From a virus, in the IMG/VR virus record IMGVR_UViG_3300045988_165550, positions 1-64,000 of that record: a DNA stretch of 64,000 nt, one strand, 5' to 3'. A program made the translations under genes and the position numbers. The notes beneath the pieces were generated by a model, which saw nothing but the letters and a program-made list of their open reading frames with translations, had not been told where the DNA came from and ran no database searches. Positions 5,748 through 22,356 of the stretch are shown here, one piece after another. How positions within the stretch are numbered: position 1 is the first letter of the stretch; each line of letters starts with the position of its first letter.

Positions 5748-7235
5748 ATGATAGATTATCAAAATATATTTAACCGTGATTTTTACACCACACCCCGCGA
5801 GGTCTTCGATATGATGACCCAGGGCGAGAGCCTGGCGGATGCCGTAATATTAGAACCTTCTGCAGGTTCTGGCGATATTGTAAGATACTGCAAGCAGGAC
5901 GGCGCAAGATACGTGAAAGCTTGCGAGATAAACGACGTACTACGGAGCGCCTTATATAATGAGTGCAACGTGATAGCGCCAGACTTCCTGACGGTACAGC
6001 GTGAGCAGGTGGCAGATATAAACTATATAATCATGAACCCGCCATTTACTAGCGTAGAAAAGCATATTTTGCACGCCTGGGAGATTGCGCCGGATGGCTG
6101 CACGATTTTAGCCCTTTGCCCTTCTTCCCGCTTCAAGTTTGGTTGTTATGGTGACGATAAGAAATTAAAGGAACTGGCGGAACTTTATGGCAGCCGTGAG
6201 GAATTGGGCGATGTTTTCAATACTTCGACCGCCGACCGCCGAACAGATGCGGAAATCTCGCTTATTCGTCTTTATAAGCCATCGGAAAAAACAGAGGATT
6301 TCGAGGATCTGGAATTTGACGAGACACCGGAAGGCTGGGACGATATGGGCAACGGTCAGGAGGGCGTAATCAAATACGATGCCGTGCGCGATATGGTGAA
6401 GCGGTACAATTCAGCCCTGGCGCAGTTTGATGCCGTGCAGGAGGCAAGCAGAAAGATAAATGAAGATATAAAAACCTTCACGGCTTGCCGCATTCATTTT
6501 GGCGCTCACGGGGATGACTGCCGAGGCAACAAGTTCCAGAACATCACCCGCGACCGATTCCGCAAGGAGTTGCAGCACGCAGCGTGGAGCAGTATTTTCG
6601 AGCTGCTCAACATGCAGAAGTACACCACCAACGTACTACAGGAGAAGATCGCCCGATTTGTTGAGACCTCAGAGGCTCGCCCCTTCAATCTGAAAAATAT
6701 CTATCTGGTTGTCTCTTCTGTATTACAGAACATCGGAAACATCATGGAGGAGTGCGTGGTTAAGGCATTCGACACGATTTGCAGCCTGTCTGCCGAGAAC
6801 TCGACAGCGGGCGAAAAGTGGAAGACGAATAGCAATTATATGGTGAACCAGAAGTTTATTGTAGATTACTTAGACTGTGAAATGAATTACCGCGGGTATC
6901 TGGATTACAGCTTTTACTCATCCGATGGCCGCCAGCGAGAAATGGAAGATTTTTTCAAGGCGATGAGCTTCCTAAACGGCAAGCCGCTAACTGATGAGTA
7001 CGCCCGCCCCTTCGAGCAGAATGTGGTACGCCGCTGCACCGACTTCGGCAAATGGTTCTATTTCGATTGGTTCCGTGTGAAGTTTTACAAAAAAGGTACG
7101 ATGCATTTTGAGTTTACCGATATAAACATCTGGTATCGCTTTAATCAGGTAGCCGCAAAGCATAAAGGCTGGGCAATCGGCAGCGTATCTCAGTGCAAGG
7201 CTCGCAAGGTATGGCGAGATATTCAGAAACCGTAA
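5748..7235 (+). CDS. N6-adenine DNA methyltransferase (motif I then NPPF) with a long C-terminal extension
   Basis: VILEPSAGSGDIV is SAM-binding motif I and IIMNPPFTS is catalytic motif IV. The start was moved to ATG 5748, because the track ORF from 5463 reads through the upstream gene end and hairpin. Confidence 0.8.
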   Translation: MIDYQNIFNRDFYTTPREVFDMMTQGESLADAVILEPSAGSGDIVRYCKQDGARYVKACEINDVLRSALYNECNVIAPDFLTVQREQVADINYIIMNPPFTSVEKHILHAWEIAPDGCTILALCPSSRFKFGCYGDDKKLKELAELYGSREELGDVFNTSTADRRTDAEISLIRLYKPSEKTEDFEDLEFDETPEGWDDMGNGQEGVIKYDAVRDMVKRYNSALAQFDAVQEASRKINEDIKTFTACRIHFGAHGDDCRGNKFQNITRDRFRKELQHAAWSSIFELLNMQKYTTNVLQEKIARFVETSEARPFNLKNIYLVVSSVLQNIGNIMEECVVKAFDTICSLSAENSTAGEKWKTNSNYMVNQKFIVDYLDCEMNYRGYLDYSFYSSDGRQREMEDFFKAMSFLNGKPLTDEYARPFEQNVVRRCTDFGKWFYFDWFRVKFYKKGTMHFEFTDINIWYRFNQVAAKHKGWAIGSVSQCKARKVWRDIQKP

Positions 7236-7297
7236 GCCCTCATTATGGAGGGTTTTGGAAATCACATATTATAGAACATATTTAAAATTTAGAAATT

Positions 7298-7774
7298 ATG
7301 GAAGCAAAGAATAATAAAAACAACGGTATGAACGTTATAGAGAATAAGGAAACAGGTTGGCAGGTGAATGCAGTATTGCCATTTGCTGAGTATCACAACT
7401 TTTTCATCAAGGGCAAGATAGTCATTTCCCGCCTGGCTGATATGGTGTGCGAGAGTCTCCGCATCGACAGAGAGGATGCAAGCGCATGGGCAAAGGATAT
7501 TCGCCTGATTGTCTGGAGCGAGATTTACCATTACGATGATAAGCGCCAGCAGTATGAGAACGATGAGGAGCACGATAGAGCTATCTCTGAGCAGATACTG
7601 GGCGATGCCATCACCCTGCGTGAAGAGGCTTATGAATACGCCCAGATGATAATGGATCACACACCGGGGGAGAAGCAGGAGTTCCTTGAGTACTGCTGGA
7701 AATACGTATCTCAGGCAACGAATCGCGTTAACCGCATGACGAAGATATTTAAGCCTTCAGACGTTGAGCAGTAA
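7298..7774 (+). CDS. hypothetical protein
   Basis: 158-aa ORF with an A-rich start context (ttagaaattATGG). No recognisable motif. Confidence 0.6.
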   Translation: MEAKNNKNNGMNVIENKETGWQVNAVLPFAEYHNFFIKGKIVISRLADMVCESLRIDREDASAWAKDIRLIVWSEIYHYDDKRQQYENDEEHDRAISEQILGDAITLREEAYEYAQMIMDHTPGEKQEFLEYCWKYVSQATNRVNRMTKIFKPSDVEQ

Positions 7775-7903
7775 CCGCCCATCATCCATACAGGGGAAGC
7801 CCGAGAGCCTTCCCCTACCCCGTCCGGCAGACCGGCAAGCGTGGATCACCACCACGGCGAGGTGCGTTATTTTAAACATAACTTTAAAATTTTAATTTGT
7901 TTA

Positions 7904-7929
7904 CGCTGAAGCGTCAGCGCTTTGTTTTT
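7904..7929 (+). terminator. Rho-independent terminator (CGCTGA agcg TCAGCG + T-rich tail)
   Basis: 6-bp stem followed by ctttgttttt. Confidence 0.6.
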
Positions 7930-8134
7930 AAAAAGGCTGTCTGCAGTTCGAGAGGATAGCAGCAGCCGAATTTCGCCCATGGTTGGCCAAGGATGATAAG
8001 ATTTCTATCCTTCTGGGTCCGAATCTCAGGTGGGCGACAAGAGAAGAAAGAAGATAAAAAGGTGTTGAGAATTTACTTTGAAAATAAAACAAAGGTTAAA
8101 AATGCACCTAAAATAGCAATTAAAGTGCATTTTA

Positions 8135-8166
8135 TTTGGTAGTTTCAAAAATTCTTTGTACCTTTG
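8135..8166 (+). promoter_or_regulatory. Bacteroidota-type promoter, class A (TTTGGTAGTT ... TACCTTTG)
   Basis: TTTG at 8135-8138 and TACCTTTG at 8159-8166. Drives the six-gene cluster. Confidence 0.65.
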
Positions 8167-8215
8167 CATCAGAAAATAAAACAAGAAGATAAATAAAAAC
8201 AATAATAATCATTTT

Positions 8216-8241
8216 AGCCCTAGCGCATCACGGTTAAGCGA
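8216..8241 (+). promoter_or_regulatory. Conserved hairpin leader, copy 1 (AGCCCTA GCGC ATCACGGTTAA GCGA)
   Basis: 7 nt upstream of ATG 8249. 3-bp stem plus a G/A mismatch. Confidence 0.7.
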
Positions 8242-8248
8242 CGAGAAT

Positions 8249-8647
8249 ATGAAGAAGAATGATATTACATCATTAGATGATCTCAAGGAGTTTTTGGTAG
8301 CTTATCAGGAGGAAAATCCGGAGGATGATTGCTGTGAGTTGGTTCGTGGTATCTGCCAGGAGAACGGATGGATTTATACCGCTGATTCTTCAATCGGTTA
8401 TGATGATGAGGATTTCGCCACCGATGGTGAGCACATCCTTTCTTTGACTTCTAACGGCTTCGAGGTTCTTCCTAACGACGGACAGGACATCAACCACAAC
8501 GGCACTGATATTACGGTTCGTGAGGATAGCGAGAATTTCTTTGTGGATTTCAACACCGGTCTGGGCGAAGGCATCTACCCAAAGGCAGATTGGACGCTGG
8601 AGAAGGCTATCAAGGACCAGGAGAACATCTATAAAGAAAATAAGTAA
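8249..8647 (+). CDS. hypothetical small acidic protein
   Basis: 132 aa, D/E-rich. Preceded by leader copy 1. Confidence 0.7.
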   Translation: MKKNDITSLDDLKEFLVAYQEENPEDDCCELVRGICQENGWIYTADSSIGYDDEDFATDGEHILSLTSNGFEVLPNDGQDINHNGTDITVREDSENFFVDFNTGLGEGIYPKADWTLEKAIKDQENIYKENK

Positions 8648-8656
8648 TCACATCTA

Positions 8657-8683
8657 AGCCCTAGGCGCATCACGGTGAAGCGT
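8657..8683 (+). promoter_or_regulatory. Conserved hairpin leader, copy 2 (AGCCCTAG GCGC ATCACGGTGAA GCGT)
   Basis: 6 nt upstream of ATG 8690. Stem closes with a G-U pair. Confidence 0.7.
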
Positions 8684-8689
8684 AGTAAT

Positions 8690-8983
8690 ATGAACGATAA
8701 GAAAGTATATGTTGTCCTTTGCGACAAGACTATCACCAATGTTTTTGATTCTCCAGAAAAGGCTTTCAATAGCCTTCCTCAGAAAGATGAGTTTACGGAA
8801 GTTTATCAGACTATACGTACTTGCGACGGTGAGGAAGCAATTATCCCTACAGCGGATAATTTCTATCTGGGTACCCCTATTTATGTTCATGTAGCAGAGC
8901 ATACGGAGGATGTGATGGGATTCCAGGTAGAGTGCCAGGAAGAAACCTTTGTTTACGAGATTAAGGAGTTTAAAGTAAAATAA
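8690..8983 (+). CDS. hypothetical small acidic protein
   Basis: Start set to ATG 8690 by analogy with the other five leader-ATG spacings. The track start at 8675 is a GTG inside the hairpin. Confidence 0.65.
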   Translation: MNDKKVYVVLCDKTITNVFDSPEKAFNSLPQKDEFTEVYQTIRTCDGEEAIIPTADNFYLGTPIYVHVAEHTEDVMGFQVECQEETFVYEIKEFKVK

Positions 8984-8992
8984 TAACCATTC

Positions 8993-9019
8993 AGCCCTAG
9001 GCGCATCACGGTTAAGCGC
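8993..9019 (+). promoter_or_regulatory. Conserved hairpin leader, copy 3 (AGCCCTAG GCGC ATCACGGTTAA GCGC)
   Basis: 6 nt upstream of ATG 9026. Perfect 4-bp stem. Confidence 0.7.
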
Positions 9020-9025
9020 AAGAAC

Positions 9026-9637
9026 ATGAAGAAGTTTTTTGTATATTTCGACAAGAAAGTTATCATCAACTCAGCAGAAGAAGCCGAGGAGTTTATTAAT
9101 AGCCTGACCGACAAAAACGAGCCTGGCGGCAGAAAACTGGAGGTTAACTACAACGTTCACGCTCTTCTGAAAAAGATTTATCAGGATGAGCAGGCGGGCA
9201 GAAAATTGCAGACTACGGGCTGTAGCCCTTCATCCTTCATCTATTGCTATCCTGCCCTTGCTGATACACCTGAAGAGTGCGAGAAGGCTATCATAGCGAA
9301 AGAGGCAGCAGACCGCAAGCGCAAGCAGGATGAGGAGATCCAGGAGAAGCAGCGCATAGCCCGAGAAATCAACGAGCGCCGCAAGGAGCTGGCTGCGATG
9401 CCGAAGGGCACCTATACCGTGGAGATTATTATCTCCATTCTCGACCATCACACCTGCGGTCCTTTTCATGATGTAGCCATTATCGGGTGCCAGGCCGAGA
9501 ACGGCGAAGATGCCTACAAGAAGGCGACGGAGAAGCTGAGAGATAAGTACGGCGACGACCTTCTCGATTACGAGACTATCGCCACCACTCAGATTATCCC
9601 CGTCCCTGCGTTACAGATAACAAGTACTTTGTTATAG
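9026..9637 (+). CDS. hypothetical protein
   Basis: 203 aa. Preceded by leader copy 3. Confidence 0.7.
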   Translation: MKKFFVYFDKKVIINSAEEAEEFINSLTDKNEPGGRKLEVNYNVHALLKKIYQDEQAGRKLQTTGCSPSSFIYCYPALADTPEECEKAIIAKEAADRKRKQDEEIQEKQRIAREINERRKELAAMPKGTYTVEIIISILDHHTCGPFHDVAIIGCQAENGEDAYKKATEKLRDKYGDDLLDYETIATTQIIPVPALQITSTLL

Positions 9638-9673
9638 CATTGGCGATTTATTACTAGTTTATAGATTATATTC

Positions 9674-9699
9674 AGCCCTACCGCATCACGGTTAAGCGG
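9674..9699 (+). promoter_or_regulatory. Conserved hairpin leader, copy 4 (AGCCCTA CCGC ATCACGGTTAA GCGG)
   Basis: 7 nt upstream of ATG 9707. Compensatory C-G pair relative to copy 3. Confidence 0.7.
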
Positions 9700-9706
9700 A
9701 TAAGAT

Positions 9707-10297
9707 ATGAGAATTACAATCGATGGTGGACATAATATATTATCCTGCGTAAATATTCCTCTTTGTGATGCTAAGTACACGAAGTTTGGTGAAGGCTTTT
9801 TTGATAGTGAAGCCCTGGAAAGCAGTGATACCTTGGAGGATATTGTCCGTGAACGCTTTGAGTCTTTTTCAACACGCGAAAACGGATGGAAGGAGTTTTC
9901 AGAGTGGAAAAAGAAGAACGAAGATAAAGCCTGGTACGATTTGCGAGAGGGCGAGAATGGAGGTCTCTACATTGTTGCCGGTGATTCTGAGAGTATTAGG
10001 TTTATATCAAAGGTTGATTTTCTTGCACTCGATTATAAGGGTTACGAGATAAACGTTTATAGCTGGGGTAAGGATCTCTACTCTTTTGGTTTCTGGATAG
10101 ACCCTGAAGGCGGAATCCTTCGAGCTTCTGACGATGAGCGATCTTGTTTCTTTTATGATGATTTGGAAAATGACGCAGCAGATTATCCGAGAAAGGATTT
10201 CAACTTCAAGGCAGCTCTCGATGATTTGGTCGCACATAGCGACGACTATCAGAATAGCAACGAGGATGAGGAGGAAGAAGACGACGAGGAGAAATAA
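9707..10297 (+). CDS. hypothetical acidic protein (poly-D/E C-terminus)
   Basis: 196 aa, ends NSNEDEEEEDDEEK. Preceded by leader copy 4. Confidence 0.7.
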   Translation: MRITIDGGHNILSCVNIPLCDAKYTKFGEGFFDSEALESSDTLEDIVRERFESFSTRENGWKEFSEWKKKNEDKAWYDLREGENGGLYIVAGDSESIRFISKVDFLALDYKGYEINVYSWGKDLYSFGFWIDPEGGILRASDDERSCFFYDDLENDAADYPRKDFNFKAALDDLVAHSDDYQNSNEDEEEEDDEEK

Positions 10298-10301
10298 AAA
10301 A

Positions 10302-10342
10302 GCCCCGACCGAAGCCGGGGCAACCGCGAGCCTTCCGGCTCG
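10302..10342 (+). terminator. Two tandem GC hairpins (GCCCCG..CGGGGC; CGAGCC ttcc GGCTCG)
   Basis: Read directly after stop 10297. Weak U-tract. Confidence 0.45.
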
Positions 10343-10544
10343 AATCTACTATAGTAGAAATTTGGCTCTGTAAGAGCGTTTAAATCCACAGACTTTGAAG
10401 AGTCTGACCGTCAACGGAAGCTATATGTTTCTTTTTATTCCATAAAGGTTCGATTGAAATCTTCCGAAGACGGTGCAAATTTAAAAAATAAAATAATACG
10501 GCGTATCAATTTACCTGAAAAATTATAGAATTTTATGTTTTTAA

Positions 10545-10570
10545 AGCCCTACCGCATCACGGATAAGCGG
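10545..10570 (+). promoter_or_regulatory. Conserved hairpin leader, copy 5 (AGCCCTA CCGC ATCACGGATAA GCGG)
   Basis: 7 nt upstream of ATG 10578. Confidence 0.7.
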
Positions 10571-10577
10571 AATAAAG

Positions 10578-10856
10578 ATGTTTAAGATATTGCACGCCTT
10601 CCTTGATTATCCCTTCTGCTCGTTCGAGTTTCTGAATCTCGACACTCAGGATCATATATTTGCTTCATTCTTCGATGATCCTCTCTATGAGCTTCTGAAA
10701 GAGTGCGGGGTGAATTACGACCACGAATTAGAAGGGAAGATAATAGAGAAGATTCCGTCCGATTTGCGCATACATACCAGGGAGTATGCCGTTATCAGGG
10801 CGCAACAATATTTAGACGGTTCTTGGTTCTTTCCCTGGCTAAAGAAGAAAAAGTAA
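10578..10856 (+). CDS. hypothetical small protein
   Basis: 92 aa. Preceded by leader copy 5. Confidence 0.65.
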   Translation: MFKILHAFLDYPFCSFEFLNLDTQDHIFASFFDDPLYELLKECGVNYDHELEGKIIEKIPSDLRIHTREYAVIRAQQYLDGSWFFPWLKKKK

Positions 10857-10867
10857 TATAATCATTC

Positions 10868-10893
10868 AGCCCTACCGCATCACGGCGAAGCGG
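10868..10893 (+). promoter_or_regulatory. Conserved hairpin leader, copy 6 (AGCCCTA CCGC ATCACGGCGAA GCGG)
   Basis: 6 nt upstream of ATG 10900. Confidence 0.7.
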
Positions 10894-10899
10894 ATTTTT

Positions 10900-11409
10900 A
10901 TGGAGAAAGATAGATTTGTCGTAAATCCCAGTAAGACCGAATCAGTAACATGGACGGTTGAAGATAATGTATCAGGCATAGGAATCACTTTCGTAGAAGG
11001 AGATTTGTTTGATACTTGTAGATATTTTGTCATCGACAAAGAAAAATGCAAGAATAAGGATATTGATGGCATCGTTGCAAATATCACTAAGTGGATAGGT
11101 GAGAATCACTTGGATCTGGCTGTATGCAACGTTTCTGCCCGATTACGCGCTATCTGGCTGATGAACGATTACTATAGCTTGGCAGTTATTACTCGGGCTA
11201 TTAAGGGTATCTCTCCTAACGATGTGGATATGGCGAATGCTTCTGATATTCTCTTTAACAAGGTTCGCGATTACGTTCTTACGGGCGATGGCGAAAATGA
11301 GTTCAATCATCTCATAGGGCGAACTCGACTTCTGGGTGCGGTATCTATGCTATCAGATAAAGAGGCAATGGAACTGTTTTTGCGTGGCTTCGGTTTATTG
11401 GAACTATAA
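10900..11409 (+). CDS. hypothetical protein
   Basis: 169 aa. Preceded by leader copy 6. Confidence 0.7.
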   Translation: MEKDRFVVNPSKTESVTWTVEDNVSGIGITFVEGDLFDTCRYFVIDKEKCKNKDIDGIVANITKWIGENHLDLAVCNVSARLRAIWLMNDYYSLAVITRAIKGISPNDVDMANASDILFNKVRDYVLTGDGENEFNHLIGRTRLLGAVSMLSDKEAMELFLRGFGLLEL

Positions 11410-11563
11410 AGCCAAGGCTGAAATAGAAGTTGGTAATTATGCAGCTGATATTGCTCATTGGCCGGACTATTTATCCAGCGAGCAGCAAAACGAAGCGATG
11501 GGTAACGATAGCAAGTTTATCGAAGCTGAAGGTTTTGAACTCGAAGAGGAAGAGGAAAATTAG
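11336..11563 (+). CDS. possible overlapping ORF or +1-frame extension of the preceding gene (acidic tail)
   Basis: The portion after 11409 (KAKAEIEVGNYAADIAHWPDYLSSEQQNEAMGNDSKFIEAEGFELEEEEEN) looks protein-like. The only in-frame ATGs are at 11336 (74-nt overlap) or near the 3' end. Confidence 0.25.
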   Translation: MRYLCYQIKRQWNCFCVASVYWNYKAKAEIEVGNYAADIAHWPDYLSSEQQNEAMGNDSKFIEAEGFELEEEEEN

Positions 11564-11642
11564 AACACAAAAAGGCTTTGGCCAAACTTCTATTTCGGGA
11601 AAATAGAACATTTTATAGCAACTTTTTAAATTCACAAAGAAA

Positions 11643-12206
11643 ATGGAGAATAACAAAACATCAAACAAGAAGGGGAGACCTGCAGCAGAGGGCAAGGCTC
11701 ACAAATACGTGGTGCCCGATGATGTACACGACTGGATCAGAAAGCACGGAGGCAGCCGATATATCACGGATATTGTACGCGCTATCGAGGCTGCGACCTT
11801 AAAGGCGCAAGGACAGCAGCAGAAAAGCGAGGAGAAGGAACTGAATAATCATGACAGCAGCCCTTCGGTGCAGGCTTCTAACTTCAAACAGGTAATCGAG
11901 CATATTTGCATACCTGTGACAGATGAACCTATCGAGGAGCAGGATCGCAAGCTGATTTGCAATGTGAAACGTATCAGATATGGTTATCCTGTAAATTCTG
12001 ATTCTAATGGTGGATCATGGAGGTTAGATGAAGATGTAGATGCAACAACACTTCATAAACTTGCCGAAATAATTCGCCAGTGTTTGAAGAGCGATTATGA
12101 TCAAGGCCTTTGTTCGGGAACTCCTCACAGATTTGAAGACTACGTTATAGAAGGCATAGAGATTTGCAAGGATTCTGGGGTAGCTACTGTTACCTTCGGT
12201 AGCTAG
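11643..12206 (+). CDS. hypothetical protein
   Basis: 187-aa ORF with a basic N-terminus. No recognisable motif. Confidence 0.6.
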   Translation: MENNKTSNKKGRPAAEGKAHKYVVPDDVHDWIRKHGGSRYITDIVRAIEAATLKAQGQQQKSEEKELNNHDSSPSVQASNFKQVIEHICIPVTDEPIEEQDRKLICNVKRIRYGYPVNSDSNGGSWRLDEDVDATTLHKLAEIIRQCLKSDYDQGLCSGTPHRFEDYVIEGIEICKDSGVATVTFGS

Positions 12207-12220
12207 TCACTCCTCGTTAT

Positions 12221-12246
12221 AGCATCGGTGAAACTTCATCGATGCT
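12221..12246 (+). terminator. Hairpin AGCATCG..CGATGCT followed by the conserved box GCTGCGACAAAATTATAAA
   Basis: 7-bp stem read directly. The 3' arm plus box recurs at 14821-14841. Confidence 0.45.
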
Positions 12247-12296
12247 GCGACAAAATTATAAACATTAATATTAATACTTTAAAGATTATAGACATT

Positions 12297-12419
12297 ATGA
12301 AAAAAGCAATTACTTACTCCCTTGCAGCCCTCGCCTTCGTAGGTGTAGCCGTGCTGCTCTTCTCTACCATCGGCGTGGCAGTGTTTTTCCTGCCCCTTCT
12401 GGCAGGAGCATTCAAATAA
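12297..12419 (+). CDS. hypothetical small membrane protein (40 aa)
   Basis: MKKAITYSLAALAFVGVAVLLFSTIGVAVFFLPLLAGAFK. ATG 12297 is preferred over the GTG at 12228, which lies inside the terminator. Confidence 0.45.
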   Translation: MKKAITYSLAALAFVGVAVLLFSTIGVAVFFLPLLAGAFK

Positions 12420-12462
12420 GATATATCAATTTTAATACTTTCGTTTTAAAGATTATAAGATT

Positions 12463-13767
12463 ATGACTAATAAGGAACTGAATATGGCTATCCTCAGTAA
12501 GTTGTATGAGATAGCCGAAATGATTTGGCAGAAGATGGCACGAAACGACCATGGTTGTTTTCGTGCCAGCGAGATAGCAAAGAACCTGGATAAGATTTTT
12601 TGCTGGGGTGATGTAGATAAGGATGAACTTTTTCAGGTAGAGGTGGATAGCTTCCGCTGCGAGTTTGCTGCTGCGTATATCTTTCGTCTTGTTACCAAGT
12701 TCGAGGGGCTTGCCGGTATCGGCAAGAATGCGCACATGTTTACTTATCAGGAGGAGGATAGCAAGGAACGTGGATGCGTATGCTTCCAGGCTACCAGGGA
12801 GATGGCAGAGCTTTGCGATTTCGTCAACAAAAAGCATAATATGGCGGCAATAACCAGTATCTTTATAGATGCAGAGAAAAACCGCCTGGTGGCTACTGAT
12901 AGCCATAAGCTGCTGGCTATGCCTGTTACCATCACTCAAAAATCGGGTGATACCCGCGAAATGCTTATCAATGCGAAGACCTGGAAGAAGATGTGCGCAA
13001 AGATGAAGCCAGGCGAAGTGTACGACCTGGTGGCAGTGAAACTGGATAATCGTGAAGAGGCTACCGTGATAGAGTTTGATGGCTTGACTTCCTATGAGCC
13101 TTCTCCTTGCCGGTTCGTAGACTGGGCTTCCTGCTTTGGCAATATCTTCGACGGATATTGTGCTCATGTAGGCGATAGCTGGGATGCTATCCGCAAGATG
13201 ATCCGCTCCAGCAAGGGTGGAGATTGTGCTTATCTTTCCGGTAGGATGGGCGAAAAGTTCATCCAGATAAAAGTGGGCGAAGACGTGGCGACCTTTGCCA
13301 CCGATGAAGTGCTGAAGCGTAGTTTCGCCCTGTGTTTTGGACGTGAGCATCTACTGGCTATTCCTCAGTTGGATATTCTGTATCTGGGCACCGAGGCGAA
13401 GACTCCGAAGATGGCTGAGTGCAAGAACGGAAACATCTATCTGCTCTGCCCTCGCAAGGATGGCGATTCGTATATCGGCGAGAAGGTGGCTGCGCCATCT
13501 TTAGAGAAAAAGGTTGTACCATCTTCAAAGAAAAAGGTTGCATCGTTATCGCACATCTGTGATTTTAAGCCTGTATGCGGCTATCTTGCATCATCGCCTA
13601 TCATTGTACCATTTGGGCGTGATAAGGGCGTAGGCGCAAGGAAAAACCACTATCTGGTAGGCGTGGCTGCCTGCCCTATGCCACCACCTGGGGATGAGAT
13701 AAAGCTTTTGCCCTTACAGGGCGAGAGGGGTGCGCCTATGATTACCCAGGGCGCTACCCTGGGCTAG
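12463..13767 (+). CDS. DnaN (beta-clamp) domain-like protein, divergent
   Basis: IFIDAEKNRLVATDSHKLLAMPV matches the clamp signature l-vATDghRLa. The 3' end runs into triple-hairpin element copy B, so the true C-terminus is uncertain. Confidence 0.45.
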   Translation: MTNKELNMAILSKLYEIAEMIWQKMARNDHGCFRASEIAKNLDKIFCWGDVDKDELFQVEVDSFRCEFAAAYIFRLVTKFEGLAGIGKNAHMFTYQEEDSKERGCVCFQATREMAELCDFVNKKHNMAAITSIFIDAEKNRLVATDSHKLLAMPVTITQKSGDTREMLINAKTWKKMCAKMKPGEVYDLVAVKLDNREEATVIEFDGLTSYEPSPCRFVDWASCFGNIFDGYCAHVGDSWDAIRKMIRSSKGGDCAYLSGRMGEKFIQIKVGEDVATFATDEVLKRSFALCFGREHLLAIPQLDILYLGTEAKTPKMAECKNGNIYLLCPRKDGDSYIGEKVAAPSLEKKVVPSSKKKVASLSHICDFKPVCGYLASSPIIVPFGRDKGVGARKNHYLVGVAACPMPPPGDEIKLLPLQGERGAPMITQGATLG

Positions 13768-14865: not shown

Positions 14866-15831
14866 ATGAAAACAAAGACGTTTTTGTTTGCCACCACCTT
14901 CATGATGATGGCAGCGTGCATGAATACTTCATGCAGCAAGTATGCAGATGAGTTTACGGATTCCTATCAGGACGCACAGACGGATGCAGCCGTGGGCGTG
15001 GAGCATGTGAAGCTGAACCTTTCGGCTCCGGAGGTTGCTCTGGGCGACGGATCCGCTACCCGTGCAGTCCTGCAAGCCGACGGCAAGAGCATGACGGATA
15101 TTTATATCTTTGATTATAATCAGACGAGCGGTAAACTGCTGCAGGTGCTTCATCAGACCAATAGCGCCGAGGATTTTGCGCAGCCTGATATGACGCTTGC
15201 TTATGGCGACCACACCTTGAAGGTGATTGCCACACGCAGCGTCTCCCCTACCCTGCTGGATGCCGATTCGGCTGCATGGGCTGCGAAGGATAATGTGCTC
15301 ACGCCTATCTCAGACAAAGTGCCGGCTATCTTGACGAGCGGCAAGACTTCGGATAGCTTCGGGGCTACCAAGGACGTGAGCGTTACGCCCGGCAAGGCAT
15401 TGGCGGTGAATATCCAGATGGAGCGTATCGTGGCGAAGCTGGTGCTTGACGTGACGGATGCGATTCCTGCGGATTGCAGTAATCTGATGATGGGCCTGGA
15501 TGAGTACTGCCATTTTTCGTGGGAGGATTTCGACGTTATACAGCCGGTGAGAAATCAGAGAACCTACGATATGACTACCTATGCTGGCGGAAATGGCGTG
15601 TTGATTACGTATTTCGTGTTGGTGCCATCGGATGGCTATTCATCGGATATTACCTTTACCCTGGGCAAGAAGGGCAGTGATAAGCCTTATTCTAAGTTCA
15701 CGGTGCAGAATGTTCCGTTTGAGCGTAATAAGGTTACGACGATTAGGGGTAAGTATTACAACCACCAGTCGGGCGTTTCCTTTTCGCTGAAGGCGGAATG
15801 GAATAAGAACGGAAACGATGTGGAGATTTAG
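14866..15831 (+). CDS. lipoprotein, Bacteroidales fimbrillin (FimB/Mfa2)-like
   Basis: Signal peptide plus lipobox (MMMAAC). The overall pattern (SATRA..., MERIVAKLVLDV) resembles fimbrillin-family lipoproteins. Confidence 0.4.
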   Translation: MKTKTFLFATTFMMMAACMNTSCSKYADEFTDSYQDAQTDAAVGVEHVKLNLSAPEVALGDGSATRAVLQADGKSMTDIYIFDYNQTSGKLLQVLHQTNSAEDFAQPDMTLAYGDHTLKVIATRSVSPTLLDADSAAWAAKDNVLTPISDKVPAILTSGKTSDSFGATKDVSVTPGKALAVNIQMERIVAKLVLDVTDAIPADCSNLMMGLDEYCHFSWEDFDVIQPVRNQRTYDMTTYAGGNGVLITYFVLVPSDGYSSDITFTLGKKGSDKPYSKFTVQNVPFERNKVTTIRGKYYNHQSGVSFSLKAEWNKNGNDVEI

Positions 15832-15877: not shown

Positions 15878-16420
15878 GGGTGCAAACGTACTCTAGACTA
15901 TCGTACTATTGAACGTTTGCACCTTTGTTCTTTTACACTATAGTACATTTCCATCTCTACATTTTGGTACACCCGCACCTTTGTTCTTTAGTACTATAGT
16001 ACATTTCCATCTTTACACTTTTGTACATCTACACCTTTGCCCTTTAGTACTTTTGTACGCTTACACCTTGGTACGAGGTAAACGGTTTCGTAGATATGAT
16101 TTTCAATTTTTGAAGATAAAAACGGGGCTTTCGCACGATTGCACTTTTCGCCTTTCGTACTCTAGTACTATCGCACTATCGTACTATCTAATATCCACAC
16201 CTTAGAACCTTCCGCCATTTGTACTATAGTACTATCGTACTATTTCTATTCTTAATAATTAAATAAGATTAAAATCTTAGAAATATATACGGATTTACTT
16301 GCAGGATTCATTTATTTTTCGTACTTTTGCACCGTAGTACTTTGGTACGATAGAGTATTTGAGCTTAGGTTCATTTGTACTTTAGTACTCGTAGTTTGAA
16401 TTTTATTATTAATACTTTAA
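15878..16420. repeat. GTAC tetramer-box array upstream of parA; candidate centromere/operator
   Basis: I count 21 GTAC between 15888 and 16390. 56-bp tandem units at 15919-15972, 15975-16030 and 16031-16078. Repeated GTACTNTAG(T)ACTATCGTACTAT blocks. Inverted repeat GGTGCAAACG..CGTTTGCACC at 15878-15923. Confidence 0.6.
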
Positions 16421-16432
16421 AATATAAAGATT

Positions 16433-17326
16433 ATGGCAGAAAATAGATTGAAAGAAGTTCTTGCCTTTGTGAACCACAAGGGCGGTGTTGGTAAGACTAC
16501 AACCGTGCAGAATTTGGCTGTAGGTTTGCGCAGATTCGGCAAAGGTAAGTTTGGGCTGAATGCGGCTGGCAAGCAGCGCAAGCCACGCATCCTGCTCATC
16601 GACCTCGATCCGCAGGGTTCACTCTCCTTCCTCTTTGACCGTAGCGCGACCAAGCACCCCGAGCAGCTCACTATCTACGATTCGCTGGTAGAGCAGAAGC
16701 CTATCCCTATCTATCAGGTAAGAGAGGGCATCTATCTGACTCCTGCATCCAAGAAATTGATTACCATTGAGCCTTTTTTGAATCAGCGTGCAGTGCCGAG
16801 AAAGGCACTCTTCAAGCTGATGGCGAAGCCGCTCGCCCTGATGAGCGAGGAGGATGGCGACCTGGCGAGTGATGGCATTGATTACAAGGATGGCGTAAAC
16901 GTGATGGAGGCGTTCGATTTCGTGTTGCTCGATTGCCCACCTGCGCTGTCCCTGCTTACCTATAATGCGCTGACGGCTGCATCGGGTGCCGTGCTTCCGG
17001 TGCAACTGGAAGCCTTGGCAACGAAGGGTATTTCTGAAATCATCAATGCCATTAAGGAGACTAGAGAGGATTTGAACGAAGGTTTGAATATCCGTGGAAT
17101 CCTGATGGTGATGAGTAATGATCAGACGAGAGCCACTAAGGAATATAAAGAATATCTGGGCACGACGTTCGCAAAGTATCTTTTTGATTCCTACACCCGT
17201 CGTGATACCAAGATGGTGGAGGCGCAGTCAATGAAGTTATCCATCTTTGAGCGCACGCCTTACTGCAGAGTAGGTTTAGACTACGAGCAATTTACCAAGG
17301 AAGTGATGGACACCATGCCCGATTAA
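16433..17326 (+). CDS. parA: ParA/Soj-family partition ATPase
   Basis: Deviant Walker A NHKGGVGKTT, LLIDLDPQGS, and Walker B FVLLDCPPAL. Confidence 0.9.
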   Translation: MAENRLKEVLAFVNHKGGVGKTTTVQNLAVGLRRFGKGKFGLNAAGKQRKPRILLIDLDPQGSLSFLFDRSATKHPEQLTIYDSLVEQKPIPIYQVREGIYLTPASKKLITIEPFLNQRAVPRKALFKLMAKPLALMSEEDGDLASDGIDYKDGVNVMEAFDFVLLDCPPALSLLTYNALTAASGAVLPVQLEALATKGISEIINAIKETREDLNEGLNIRGILMVMSNDQTRATKEYKEYLGTTFAKYLFDSYTRRDTKMVEAQSMKLSIFERTPYCRVGLDYEQFTKEVMDTMPD

Positions 17327-17781: not shown

Positions 17782-17837
17782 TGAGGTAAAATCTTACTAA
17801 AGTCTTTTACCTGATTTGGTACCAAAATAGTACCGAA

Positions 17838-18286
17838 GGGTATAGTTTTTGGTACCAAATCACTGCATTTATGGCTAAGTTTGAAGCGTAAAGTATTGAA
17901 TTTCAAGCATTTATATACTGCAAAATGTATCATACTAATGTATTTCTCATTATACCAAATGGTTAAATGATTGATTTCCAAATTATTACGATAAAAACTT
18001 AGCCATAAATGTAGCGACTTTCGGACCAAAAGGTACAAAAGGGTTATAGTTCTTGGTACGCAACAAGTCAATACATTTGTGGCTAAGTTTGAGGTAAAAT
18101 CCTACTAAAGTATTTTACCTTCTTACTAAATCTTTTTACCGAGGGTTATAGTTCTTGGTACAAAGGGTTATAGTTCTTGGTACAAATGGTTATAGTTCTT
18201 GGTACGAAAATACCAAATCTGGAGGGTTATAGTTCTTGGTACAAAGGGTTATAGTTCTTGGTACAAAGGGTTATAGTTCTTGGTAC
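17838..18286. repeat. Iteron-type origin: seven 19-nt iterons GGGTTATAGTTCTTGGTAC plus one degenerate copy, around an A+T-rich tract
   Basis: Iterons at 18041, 18143, 18165, 18187, 18224, 18246 and 18268 (22-bp period within the triplets). Degenerate copy at 17838-17855. A+T-rich 17890-17995 is bracketed by inverted CATTTATGGCTAAGTTT (17866-17883 / 17995-18011). Confidence 0.8.
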
Positions 18287-18410
18287 ATTAAAAATCTCGA
18301 AAGTGTAGTGTTTATCGGGGTTTCCGACGATTTCGGGGTCCCTATACTAATACTAATACTATTTATTATATCCGTATATGAAAGAATGAAAATATATATA
18401 GGTAATAGTT

Positions 18411-19700
18411 ATGGCCAAAAAAATAGTTGAAAAAGTATCCGACTCTACTCAGGTATCGTTTAAAGACCTGGAGAGGCAGCCTACCGCCGAAGAGCTTTGC
18501 AGTTTACGGTGGATAAAGACTCCGTGTTCCTATGCTTCGCTAGGCAGCACGTTCACCCTTTTGCAGCAGGACATCATGCTACAAGTGAGTGCAAGACTTC
18601 AACGATACATCAATCAGTATTACGACCAAATGCGATATAAGGAAAAGACTTACCCTAAGTCACCTTTCCTTTCTGAAGAGCAGAAGGACGAGGCATTGCA
18701 TATTCAGCTTGATATGTCTGACCTGGTATCATCACGTTCAAATTATAAGGAAATGTTTCAAGAGTATGCTGATGGCAAGGTTCCCGTAGCCGAGCAGATC
18801 AGCGCCCTGAAGATGTATGTAAGGAAGGATAATGTGGTAGATCTTTATCCGGTGTTTGATAAGATTTCTCTTCCTAAGAAAGTATGGAAGATGCAGGACG
18901 GGACCGAGAAATGGGCTTATTCAGGTATCATAGATTTGCGTATTAATCATTTCATCGCTGACTACGCTTTCGACTTGAGTAAGGGATATATTCCACACAT
19001 GGCTCGTGTAGCAAAGACGAGCAAACGAAGGGTAACACCTAGGGTGTATCTTTGGCTGATGGAGAATAAAGACCGCTCTAAGAAAAGAAAGGGCTTGGAT
19101 GATCCGCTATCGGTTACGCTCGAAGACTTGAAGGATTTTCTGGGTTGCTATGAAATCAATCCAGAAACAAACGAAAAGGTGTATCAATATCCGAGATATT
19201 CCCGATTTAAGAAGGATGTTCTTGATAAGGCGAAGGCTGACCTGATAGAGCAGGCAAAGCGAAATGAGATTGACATTACTTTTGATTACAAAGAGCACTA
19301 CCTGAATGGAGGAAAGCGTGGCAATCCTGATTACATCACCTTTGAGGTGTTCTATACGCCCCTGGGAAGGCTTCACAAGGCTGGAAAGTTTACTGAGGGT
19401 GAATTGTTCGATGCGAAGGCATTCGATGTAGCGAAGAACGTGCAGCCTGCTTCTTCTAAGATAGAAACGAAAGTAGGCGAGGGTGGCGACAAGTGGAAAG
19501 CGTTCTGCAACCTCATTATAGGCGACGCTGAGAAATCACTGATTTCACGCCTTTCCTTCGTCGGCATGAAGAACGACCGCTTTTGCGTGGAGTGCAGCGA
19601 TGAGGATTTTGAGATGATCCGAAAATTAGGTATCGAGGATAAAGCAAAAGAGTTCTTTGGGTGCAAAGGTTCTTTTGCTCCGGTGTTCTACCGAGGATGA
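18411..19700 (+). CDS. plasmid-type replication initiator (Rep), putative
   Basis: 429-aa ORF immediately downstream of the iteron array, next to parA. Assigned mostly from context. Confidence 0.55.
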   Translation: MAKKIVEKVSDSTQVSFKDLERQPTAEELCSLRWIKTPCSYASLGSTFTLLQQDIMLQVSARLQRYINQYYDQMRYKEKTYPKSPFLSEEQKDEALHIQLDMSDLVSSRSNYKEMFQEYADGKVPVAEQISALKMYVRKDNVVDLYPVFDKISLPKKVWKMQDGTEKWAYSGIIDLRINHFIADYAFDLSKGYIPHMARVAKTSKRRVTPRVYLWLMENKDRSKKRKGLDDPLSVTLEDLKDFLGCYEINPETNEKVYQYPRYSRFKKDVLDKAKADLIEQAKRNEIDITFDYKEHYLNGGKRGNPDYITFEVFYTPLGRLHKAGKFTEGELFDAKAFDVAKNVQPASSKIETKVGEGGDKWKAFCNLIIGDAEKSLISRLSFVGMKNDRFCVECSDEDFEMIRKLGIEDKAKEFFGCKGSFAPVFYRG

Positions 19701-19707
19701 TTTTTGC

Positions 19708-19800
19708 AGTTGATAGTTGATAGTTTATAGTTGATAGGGCATTTTTTCTGCTATCAACTATAAACTGTCAACTATTAACTATTAACTATCAACTATTAAC
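19708..19800. repeat. Heptamer arrays forming a long inverted repeat (GTTGATA x4 / CTATNAA x7); probable terminator
   Basis: Left arm 19708-19737, right arm 19751-19800. Confidence 0.8.
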
Positions 19801-22197: not shown

Positions 22198-22298
22198 TTT
22201 ATAAGGTGAATAACTCTATTCTGTTCATCTGAAAAACCAATTAATATACCTAACCTATGTTAAATTCCCCTAATTTCTGAAAGAAAATATAGGTAACG

Positions 22299-22330
22299 TT
22301 TGGTAGTTTTGATTTTATTCTTTAAATTTG
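22299..22330 (+). promoter_or_regulatory. Promoter class A (TTTGGTAGTTTT ... TAAATTTG)
   Basis: TTTG at 22299-22302, -7 box at 22323-22330. Confidence 0.6.
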
Positions 22331-22356
22331 CACCAAAATTAAGAAATAAAATTGAG

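Follow-up and report, generated by a model that had tools for sequence, protein, structure and literature searches.

Each of six consecutive small genes in the virus record IMGVR_UViG_3300045988_165550 of IMG/VR is preceded by a copy of a short leader which, because its stem covaries through at least nine types, is on the evidence of the aligned sequences a real hairpin. Positions 1 to 64,000 of this record, one strand of 64,000 nucleotides (nt), make up the window that was analysed, and the positions of the copies are numbered along its whole length. The leader very probably acts as RNA, as is argued by its covariation, its occurrence on the sense strand, its location inside host-type transcripts and its being clear of upstream coding sequence. 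Chances appear about even that it is a translational operator or enhancer, bound by a factor or by the ribosome, which would coordinate a regulon of gene cassettes, the sign of this control being left open.

The leader copies and their covarying stem

All six copies are found on the + strand and each shortly precedes an ATG, with gaps of 7, 6, 6, 7, 7, and 6 nt for copies 1 to 6. Copy 1 (8216–8241; 49.2 bits with a covariance model trained on relatives) begins with AGCCCU at 8216–8221 and pairs CGC 8224–8226 with GCG 8238–8240 around the loop AUCACGGUUAA at 8227–8237, its fourth stem position, G8223/A8241, being mismatched and its ATG lying at 8249. Copy 2 (8657–8683, 45.1 bits), which follows a stop codon ending at 8647, has AGCCCU at 8657–8662, the stem GCGC 8665–8668/GCGU 8680–8683 with a G-U outer pair, the loop at 8669–8679 and the ATG at 8690. 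Copy 3 (8993–9019, ATG 9026, 48.6 bits) pairs GCGC 9001–9004 with GCGC 9016–9019 around a loop at 9005–9015. The last three copies share the stem CCGC/GCGG, located at 9681–9684/9696–9699 in copy 4 (9674–9699, loop 9685–9695, ATG 9707, 53.6 bits), at 10552–10555/10567–10570 in copy 5 (10545–10570, loop AUCACGGAUAA at 10556–10566, ATG 10578, 50.3 bits), and at 10875–10878/10890–10893 in copy 6 (10868–10893, loop AUCACGGCGAA at 10879–10889, ATG 10900, 48.1 bits). Pattern scans and a re-reading of the coordinates bore out an initial annotation of this DNA in the six positions, in the ATG gaps of 6–7 nt, and in the state of the outermost pair of every copy. The chance expectation of the 26-nt leader pattern was 0.00 in 100 dinucleotide shuffles, the core CGCATCACGG has exactly six occurrences over the 64 kb, none of them outside the six copies, and the covariance model, which scores these at 45–54 bits, finds its next match in the window at 12 bits.

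Relatives were collected from IMG/VR by exact-pattern scans with a CGC/GCG stem, with a GAC/GTC stem, and with the stem unspecified; the resulting counts are lower bounds, and most of the genomes were viewed over 7–10 kb to either side of the leader copies. The fetched loci yielded at least about 344 copies, 240–290 of them distinct; over the whole collection the distinct copies number more than 300, and the contigs which carry them, at least about 220, are from uncultivated viruses or from Prevotellaceae genomes. The consensus runs from an A/U-rich, G-free flank through AGCCCU, an A or C, 0–2 extra nt, a 3-bp stem, the loop, and the second strand of the stem to the spacer and AUG. The leader measures 26–30 nt, or about 35 nt with the spacer; its stem has 3–4 bp, the A/U-rich spacer 6–8 nt, and the 8 nt 5' of the leader are G-poor and A/U-rich. 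The loop, A-N-C-A-C-G-G-N(1–2)-A-A, had been described as keeping ATCACGG invariant, which holds within the window; across the relatives the second base of the loop is U in 80%, A in 10%, and G in 9%, and the length is 10 or 11 nt.

The stem types found are CGC/GCG, GAC/GUC, GCC/GGC, GCU/AGC, GGC/GCC, AAC/GUU, ACC/GGU, CUC/GAG, and UAC/GUA, at least nine in number, with some G-U pairs, and an extra base 5' of the stem is matched by its 3' partner (C-G, U-A, G-C, or U-G). In 149 distinct copies 97.6% of cells were paired, double changes occurred in all four pairs, none of 500 shuffles reached the score, and slid controls gave 11–30%; in a further 126 distinct covariance-model matches from other loci 98.4% of cells were paired, with 0–34% in slid controls. 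Pairing is kept with compensation in both sets, which upholds the covariation proposed earlier from the six copies alone. As the copies share descent, shuffle controls overstate the significance, and the slid controls together with the independent stem types are the stronger argument. The copy set was gathered partly with stem-containing patterns, for which a stem-free scan and flanking copies served as controls: 211 of the 221 matches of the stem-free scan which had an ATG at the right distance were fully paired, and chance matches lacking the ATG were unpaired. Mutual information was found only between stem pairs and as lineage linkage, loop and 5' hexamer covarying with no other position. 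The helix itself is weak: for most copies in the window the minimum-free-energy structure is a different one, and the z-scores are not significant, by which stable self-folding is ruled out.

Transcripts and start codons

A Bacteroidetes sigma-A promoter was read from the sequence on the + strand at 8135–8166 (TTTG at 8135–8138, 20 nt, and TACCTTTG at 8159–8166). Its match to the consensus agrees with the promoter claimed at this place by the initial annotation, and the transcription start predicted from it, at about 8172, is some 45 nt 5' of leader copy 1. The same layout is met in the relatives at array-first copies, a full TTTG-N18–22-TAnnTTTG lying 31–57 nt 5' of 31 of the 325 unique copies as compared with 1.5% of random positions. 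Internal copies leave no space for a promoter, and no + strand terminators were found between the array genes of the window. Host-type promoters just 5' of array-first copies place the leader inside transcripts of the host polymerase, and it is most likely part of host-made mRNA. The promoter at 8135–8166 belongs to one of three near-identical copies of an extended promoter of the sigma-A type, 1880–1928, 8133–8181, and 22297–22345 (shared letters TATTTGGTAGTT...TTTGTA..TCTTTGCA.CA.AAAATAAAA), which probably mark three co-regulated early transcription units.

The host-type promoters 5' of array-first copies, together with the covariation, bear on the suggestion, raised as an alternative in the initial annotation, that the leader is a compact promoter for a polymerase not of the host. 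An unrecognised phage polymerase or sigma factor would read it, possibly as a DNA hairpin in the manner of the virion RNA polymerase of phage N4, and make leaderless or near-leaderless mRNAs. A distance to the ATG kept to ±1 nt, the T at −1 (80%) and the A at +1, a size of 26–30 nt close to that of single-subunit polymerase promoters, and the presence of one copy before every gene all suit such an element, and many open reading frames (ORFs) of the window have no recognisable function. It is nevertheless unlikely, since recognition of duplex DNA does not explain Watson-Crick covariation through nine or more stem types, which requires a folded single strand, and since extrusion from duplex DNA is not to be expected of a 3–4-bp stem that closes an 11-nt loop. 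An internal insertion of 0–2 nt would be unusual for promoters of this kind, the genes are not separated by terminators, and canonical host promoters stand 31–57 nt 5' of the array-first copies. Scans of approximately 60 window ORFs with Pfam or PHROGs, which left many ORFs without assignment, revealed neither an RNA polymerase nor a sigma factor.

A position downstream of an early promoter of host type would also be expected of a nut-like antitermination site, in which AGCCCU would act as boxA and the hairpin as boxB, and the polymerase would be modified to read through the early region. The two-part layout, a single-stranded segment followed by a short spacer and a covarying hairpin with conserved loop, resembles boxA-boxB. 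This explanation is very improbable, however, as lambdoid operons have one nut site each and not 4–8 copies per array all in register with starts, as there is no boxA consensus and the loop has 10–11 nt instead of 5, and as no + strand terminators lie between the copies which would have to be overcome.

The claim that all six genes form one operon behind the promoter at 8135–8166 is no more than plausible, since genes 4 and 5 are separated by a conserved and structured non-coding stretch of 245 nt at 10298–10544. The interval from gene 4 to leader copy 5 holds a conserved non-coding element of some 190 nt (10296–10490, probably on the − strand), with homologues in at least 35 distinct loci at 76–95% identity and with several covarying hairpins. 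Its − strand carries a conserved TAnnTTTG −7 box near 10480–10487 (variants TAAATTTG, TATCTTTG, and TATATTTG) and, at 10321–10296, an intrinsic terminator made up of GCCCCGGCTTCGGTCGGGGC and then T6, and the consensus fold reaches −38.9 kcal/mol on the − strand versus −28.3 kcal/mol on the + strand. Probably this is a gene for a small RNA of about 175 nt, placed in antisense orientation within the early array. The element was considered as a pairing partner of the leader and rejected, duplex energies being no better than those of shuffles.

The position of the leader relative to the start codon is nearly constant. In 328 of 344 copies the end of the loop is separated from the ATG by 9, 10, or 11 nt, most exceptions being cases where the script chose an earlier out-of-frame ATG, and the base of the helix is about 6.5–7 nt from the ATG for 3-bp and 4-bp stems alike. 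The spacer is conserved in length and variable in sequence, with A at −3 (62%) and −6 (56%) and the T at −1, and the invariant AA of the loop comes to lie at about −10 to −13. The proteins encoded downstream belong to at least 85 unrelated families, including small acidic proteins and lipoproteins with signal peptides. A register kept to ±1 nt of the AUG across unrelated genes with a drifting spacer points to initiation. Upstream ORFs usually end 6–11 nt before AGCCCU and almost never enter the leader, which fills nearly all of the gene-to-gene gaps of about 42–46 nt. The other genes of the phage have plain A/U-rich leaders. Initiation in Bacteroidia, as studied in Flavobacterium, is stimulated by A at −3, −6, −12, and −13, the adenines at −12 and −13 being proposed contacts of bS1 (PMC6847099, PMC7797042).

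Its intercistronic position in a host-transcribed early operon would also be suited to a processing or stability site, where AGCCCU together with the hairpin would direct an endoribonuclease of host or phage to cleave the early polycistronic RNA. This was considered rather unlikely, and so were its two conceivable outcomes, monocistronic mRNAs with a protective 5' hairpin as known from RNase III in phage T7, or inactivation of early mRNA as by RegB of phage T4 at GGAG. A conserved single-stranded segment beside a small hairpin and 8 upstream nt which are G-poor and A/U-rich, as at many RNase E-type sites, fit with cleavage, and RegB gives a precedent for a nuclease targeting the initiation regions of early genes (PMC3014915). 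Cleavage would, on the other hand, not require a start register of ±1 nt, a helix of 3–4 bp cannot be a substrate of RNase III, no nuclease candidate is common to the loci, and transcript-first copies carry the leader as well.

For a translational operator or enhancer the following mechanism is proposed. Host RNA polymerase would transcribe the leader within the 5' untranslated region or the intercistronic spacer of early or accessory cassettes, which would belong to siphovirus-like phages and phage-plasmids of the Prevotellaceae. In the transcript the weak helix of 3–4 bp would present the conserved loop of 10–11 nt, the invariant AGCCCU being single-stranded just 5' of it, and the base of the helix, 6–8 nt 5' of the AUG, would occupy the place which the Shine-Dalgarno (SD) duplex has in other bacteria. 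A sequence-specific partner would bind there, either an RNA-binding protein of host or phage or the 30S subunit with bS1; such a partner is suggested by a hairpin too weak to fold stably alone, and as no gene family accompanies the arrays, a host factor, the ribosome, or a phage gene far from the array is favoured. The partner would switch or boost initiation of all cassettes of the array jointly and so create a post-transcriptional regulon, and the shared 26–30 nt would as a by-product offer a homology junction for cassette exchange between phages. The sequences directly show the copies and where they occur, the covarying hairpin, its constant spacing, its place behind promoters of host type, and the breakpoints of mosaicism; action in RNA, action on initiation, and the existence of a trans-acting partner are what we infer from them. 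The RNA-level operator argued for in the initial annotation agrees with a covarying hairpin at a fixed start distance in host-type transcripts; these data would suit repression, activation, and processing alike. A more specific variant, put forward tentatively and with some doubt, sees in the hairpin a dedicated SD-independent start signal for the ribosomes of Bacteroidia, a preformed helix and AGCCCU docking in the SD-duplex/bS1 region of the 30S subunit, which would otherwise go unused, or recruiting a specific factor of host or phage to it. If this were true, accessory and anti-defence cassettes of the phages would gain a privileged or switchable translation, and a portable signal of about 35 nt including the spacer would let any ORF join the array, so that shuffling would be coupled to expression.

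Several observations weigh against control of initiation by the leader RNA. The fixed ATG distance, the pyrimidine at −1, and the A at +1 also suit a promoter whose mRNAs have no leader. Initiation in Bacteroidia is normally reduced by structure and by G+C close to the start codon (PMC6847099). Plain A/U-rich leaders serve other genes of the phage, so the leader is dispensable for translation as such; taken together with the effect of structure, this makes a specific control point likelier than a generic enhancer. G-U outnumber A-C mismatches on the sense strand by 10 to 5, which weakly supports folding of the sense RNA and is too small an asymmetry to prove that this strand is the folded one. 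No partner candidate was found: on clustering of same-strand ORFs no family occurred near more than 18% of the arrays in 223 loci, and proteins of the window recur in at most 27 of 184 loci. There was no convincing complementarity to ribosomal RNA, AGCCCU and CACGG giving matches of only 4–6 nt, in regions that are helical or distant, in a comparison with 16S sequence which did not include a real Prevotella 16S, and none between the leader and the neighbouring conserved non-coding element. The high conservation could, finally, stem partly from recent recombinational spread rather than from selection on each copy.

Bacteroidia are dominant Gram-negative bacteria of gut and rumen and translate without Shine-Dalgarno pairing. 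How individual mRNAs, in particular those of phages, are chosen and regulated at initiation in these bacteria is to our knowledge largely unknown. The leader is a compact and strongly covarying element in hundreds of Prevotellaceae phage genomes, situated at the SD position of accessory and early genes only. Should it bind the ribosome or a factor, it would offer a handle on SD-independent control of initiation, a ready expression part for the genetics of Prevotella and Bacteroides, and a marker for islands of early or anti-defence genes in gut phages. Cultured strains that carry it make experiments possible.

Known elements and related genomes

The leader is a new RNA motif family, which we class with the start-associated, cis-regulatory leaders, and corresponds to none of the family definitions against which it was tested. 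Its closest analogue are the start-associated and extended start-associated sequences (SAS and ESAS) of Cluster K mycobacteriophages, which behave alike (PMC3203893) and of which it is not a member, the sequences being unrelated. SAS is a short asymmetric repeat with 11–19 copies per genome, 3–7 bp before start codons; it is found in the non-structural arm only, has one orientation, stands before unrelated gene families, is essentially absent from the host, and is suspected to take part in the initiation of translation (Pope et al. 2011, PMC3203893). While SAS is an unstructured 13-bp sequence, GGGATAGGAGCCC, with a Shine-Dalgarno core in a host which uses SD, the leader has no SD, an SD-independent host, and a covarying hairpin. 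In ESAS the inverted repeats show no covariation and have been interpreted as sites in DNA (PMC3203893). A likeness to RegA and RegB of T4 lies in the shut-off of many early initiation regions together by one phage factor (PMC3014915). RegA sites, however, are A/U-rich, unstructured, and poorly conserved and RegB cuts GGAG in the SD, whereas the leader is highly conserved and structured; no homologue of RegA or RegB was recognisable in this system. In T4-type phages the promoter-early stem-loops (PeSL) are conserved regulatory repeats which flank small variable early ORFs in hyperplastic regions and provide the homology by which modules are shuffled, with mosaic breakpoints at the repeats (PMC2839356, PMC4122927). 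They consist of a sigma-70 early promoter plus a terminator-like stem-loop and work at the level of transcription, in contrast to the leader, which has no host promoter motif and keeps the start register.

The operators of phages MS2 and PP7 and boxB of lambda resemble the leader as small hairpins with a covarying stem and a sequence-specific loop for one protein. They occur once or twice per genome, have loops of 3–6 nt, and either contain the AUG, as in MS2, or work in transcription, as boxB does, as opposed to 4–8 copies per genome, a 10–11-nt loop, and an extra invariant 5' hexamer in the leader. The RNase III sites of T7 lie between consecutive early genes in a host-transcribed operon whose first gene encodes an acidic anti-restriction protein, and they form irregular hairpins which are long enough for some two turns of helix. 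The leader is likewise found between early genes, but its stem has 3–4 bp.

Further candidates were tried and rejected. A site for RNase III, which comprises about 20 mostly double-stranded bp, is not compatible with a helix of 3–4 bp and no longer conserved pairing. An N4-type hairpin promoter has a stem of 5–7 bp and a 3-nt loop in DNA, and goes with a few copies at the end of the genome and a gene for a giant virion RNA polymerase; the leader has 3–4 bp and 10–11 nt, and no polymerase-like protein was found among the large ORFs of the 64 kb, the one of 2095 amino acids being a tape measure. For a promoter of a T7-like single-subunit polymerase, a rigid conserved duplex of about 23 bp, the internal length variation of 0–2 nt, the covariation, and the lack of a detected polymerase domain were decisive. 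A lambda-type nut site, which has a boxB loop of 5 nt resembling GNRA and occurs once in an early operon, was rejected on the loop of 10–11 nt, the absence of boxA from the alignment, and the six copies in 2.7 kb, all in ATG register. Resemblance of U-N-stem-A...GG...A-stem to the D-arm of tRNA fails at loop position 2, which is mostly U, and at the variable spacer, and ARAGORN found neither tRNA nor tmRNA in the window. Guanidine-II (ACGR loop), the pistol ribozyme (AAGCCCUA), and CsrA-type sites (GGA loop) require helices or bases which are absent or variable in the leader, and gave no Rfam match. A Shine-Dalgarno site, 5–9 nt before the AUG, would fit by position, but the consensus lacks the purine-rich, GGAGG-like core which pairs with the 16S 3' tail, and the ribosomes of the Bacteroidia hosts sequester the anti-SD (PMC7797042).

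Rfam 15 gave nothing at gathering score in the whole window, in keeping with the earlier impression that the motif is no named element; with permissive E-values chance matches to snoRNA and long non-coding RNA families appeared in 7800–11000, and on the leader copies only a match to REN-SRE of 16 bits. Neither megablast of the region nor blastn of a 40-nt leader sequence found a match among 50,697 GenBank phages, and PLSDB plasmids gave matches at chance level only. A scan of GTDB (one genome per species, 22-base pattern) yielded 23 loci. The labels of sixteen, most of which lie on contigs of 30–95 kb, read Prevotella, Segatella copri, Leyella, Hallella, or Prevotellaceae, the other seven being contigs of metagenome-assembled genomes which bear other names and are probably mis-binned. 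The guess of a Bacteroidales phage was hence right in outline, and the matches are mostly to Prevotella, Segatella, Leyella, and Hallella. Four carriers are cultured: Segatella copri HF1825, Leyella stercorea MSK.21.24, Hallella mizrahii, and Prevotella sp. ne3005.

Each genome has one array of about 4–8 leader copies within 3–4 kb, flanked by dozens of small genes without leader, and all copies of a locus are on one strand, the coding strand. When window positions 7000–12500 were aligned to related loci, homology blocks began and ended at leader copies, different cassettes being combined between the same leaders. Such mosaic breakpoints, and a 5' leader shared by at least 85 unrelated ORF families, could indicate a DNA recombination site which delimits mobile cassettes, like an integron or a linker, perhaps using an adjacent tyrosine recombinase, with any effect on expression being secondary. 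In 40 of about 223 loci the array is indeed preceded, at a distance of 0.02–1.2 kb, by a same-strand gene for a tyrosine recombinase of about 339 amino acids, and the attC sites of integrons are hairpins recognised by structure and tolerant in sequence. Recombination as the primary function is nonetheless quite improbable. It does not account for the start register of 6–8 nt with a variable spacer; near the arrays of the window and its closest relatives there is no recombinase, but ParA and Rep; the hairpin is far smaller than attC, is placed on the 5' and not the 3' side of ORFs, and lacks R/L boxes. Breakpoints at leaders follow from any shared repeat of 26–30 nt by ordinary homologous recombination, so a dedicated recombination function is not shown by them. 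The recombinase-adjacent loci were observed to form one large lineage (e.g., L062 6508–7525 and L044 5449–6433). An integron attC site proper (an imperfect hairpin of 57–141 bp with R/L boxes, 3' of each promoterless ORF, accompanied by an IntI-type integrase and attI) was rejected on the length of the leader, 26–30 nt, and its place 5' of ORFs in ATG register, and an integron-like system on the restriction of the recombinase to this lineage and its absence near the window array.

Genes behind the leaders and other features of the genome

The six leader-preceded genes, taken from the ORF list, extend over 8249–11409 on the + strand: gene 1 at 8249–8647 (132 amino acids), gene 2 at 8690–8983 (97), gene 3 at 9026–9637 (203), gene 4 at 9707–10297 (196), gene 5 at 10578–10856 (92), and gene 6 at 10900–11409 (169). 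They encode small acidic proteins without assigned function, for which nothing was found in Pfam or PHROGs. Isoelectric points of 4.05–5.45 for all six products, with net charges of −22, −10, and −28 for three of them, confirm the acidity stated for several of them in the initial annotation. By family clustering genes 1 and 4 are distant paralogues and members of the commonest leader-associated family. A confident AlphaFold model of gene 1 (pLDDT 93.9) shows two helices, a seven-stranded sheet, and a C-terminal helix, and has no Foldseek neighbour at E ≤ 0.001 in PDB or BFVD. The idea that these might be DNA-mimic anti-restriction proteins was based on acidity; it finds no support in Pfam or PHROGs, nor in a structural neighbour of gene 1 in PDB or BFVD, and leaders in relatives precede lipoproteins and other non-acidic proteins as well.

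Homologues of gene 1 (P0001, P0003, P0004, P0007, P0086, and others) are often called with 150–174 instead of 132 amino acids in public records, because the gene caller extended the ORF upstream across the leader. The covariance-model match falls within the called gene in these over-long homologues, as also in L261–L264 at 10001–10486. Gene callers systematically run ORFs through the leader, which could serve to correct start codons.

Besides the array, the window encodes a tape measure protein of 2095 amino acids, a primase/helicase-like protein of 1226 amino acids (DUF5906), a beta clamp, methyltransferases, an LPD29 polyvalent protein, ParA, and a Rep3-type initiator. Eight iterons of 22 bp (GGGTTATAGTTCTTGGTAC) at 17834–18290, 5' of the Rep3-type initiator gene at 18411–19700, have the appearance of a plasmid-style origin. 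Judged by this combination of iterons and Rep3, the phage is probably a phage-plasmid; it looks siphovirus-like and has no close cultured relative, and related contigs of 80–103 kb in ENA have the same gene layout. GTAC-containing repeats phased at 8 bp (15896–16243) lie just 5' of the ParA ATPase gene at 16433–17326 and are likely to be a partition site of centromere-like kind.

Other repeats were noticed in passing. Intergenic runs of the heptad CTATAAA/TATAAAC at 19741, 20758, 48389, 53663, and 54835, and in inverse form at 15822, 17325, 19693, 28905, and 54789, could be repeats associated with terminators or sites where a regulator of the phage binds. A hairpin of 7 bp whose 5' flank is conserved, CCGTTCCCAGCGATTCCnTCGCTGG, occurs five times (21751, 24426, 33784, 35480, and 63854). 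In seven genes between 34 and 42 kb (T)AGCGT abuts the ATG (34389, 37371, 38271, 39196, 39826, 40413, and 41743; e.g., AAATAGCGTATG), which looks like a repeated junction coupling stop and start and would be a second start-associated pattern in the genome. Two genes just 3' of the array, finally, share another leader at 12255–12298 and 12420–12463, which reads TTAATACTTT...AAAGATTATA.A.ATTATG.

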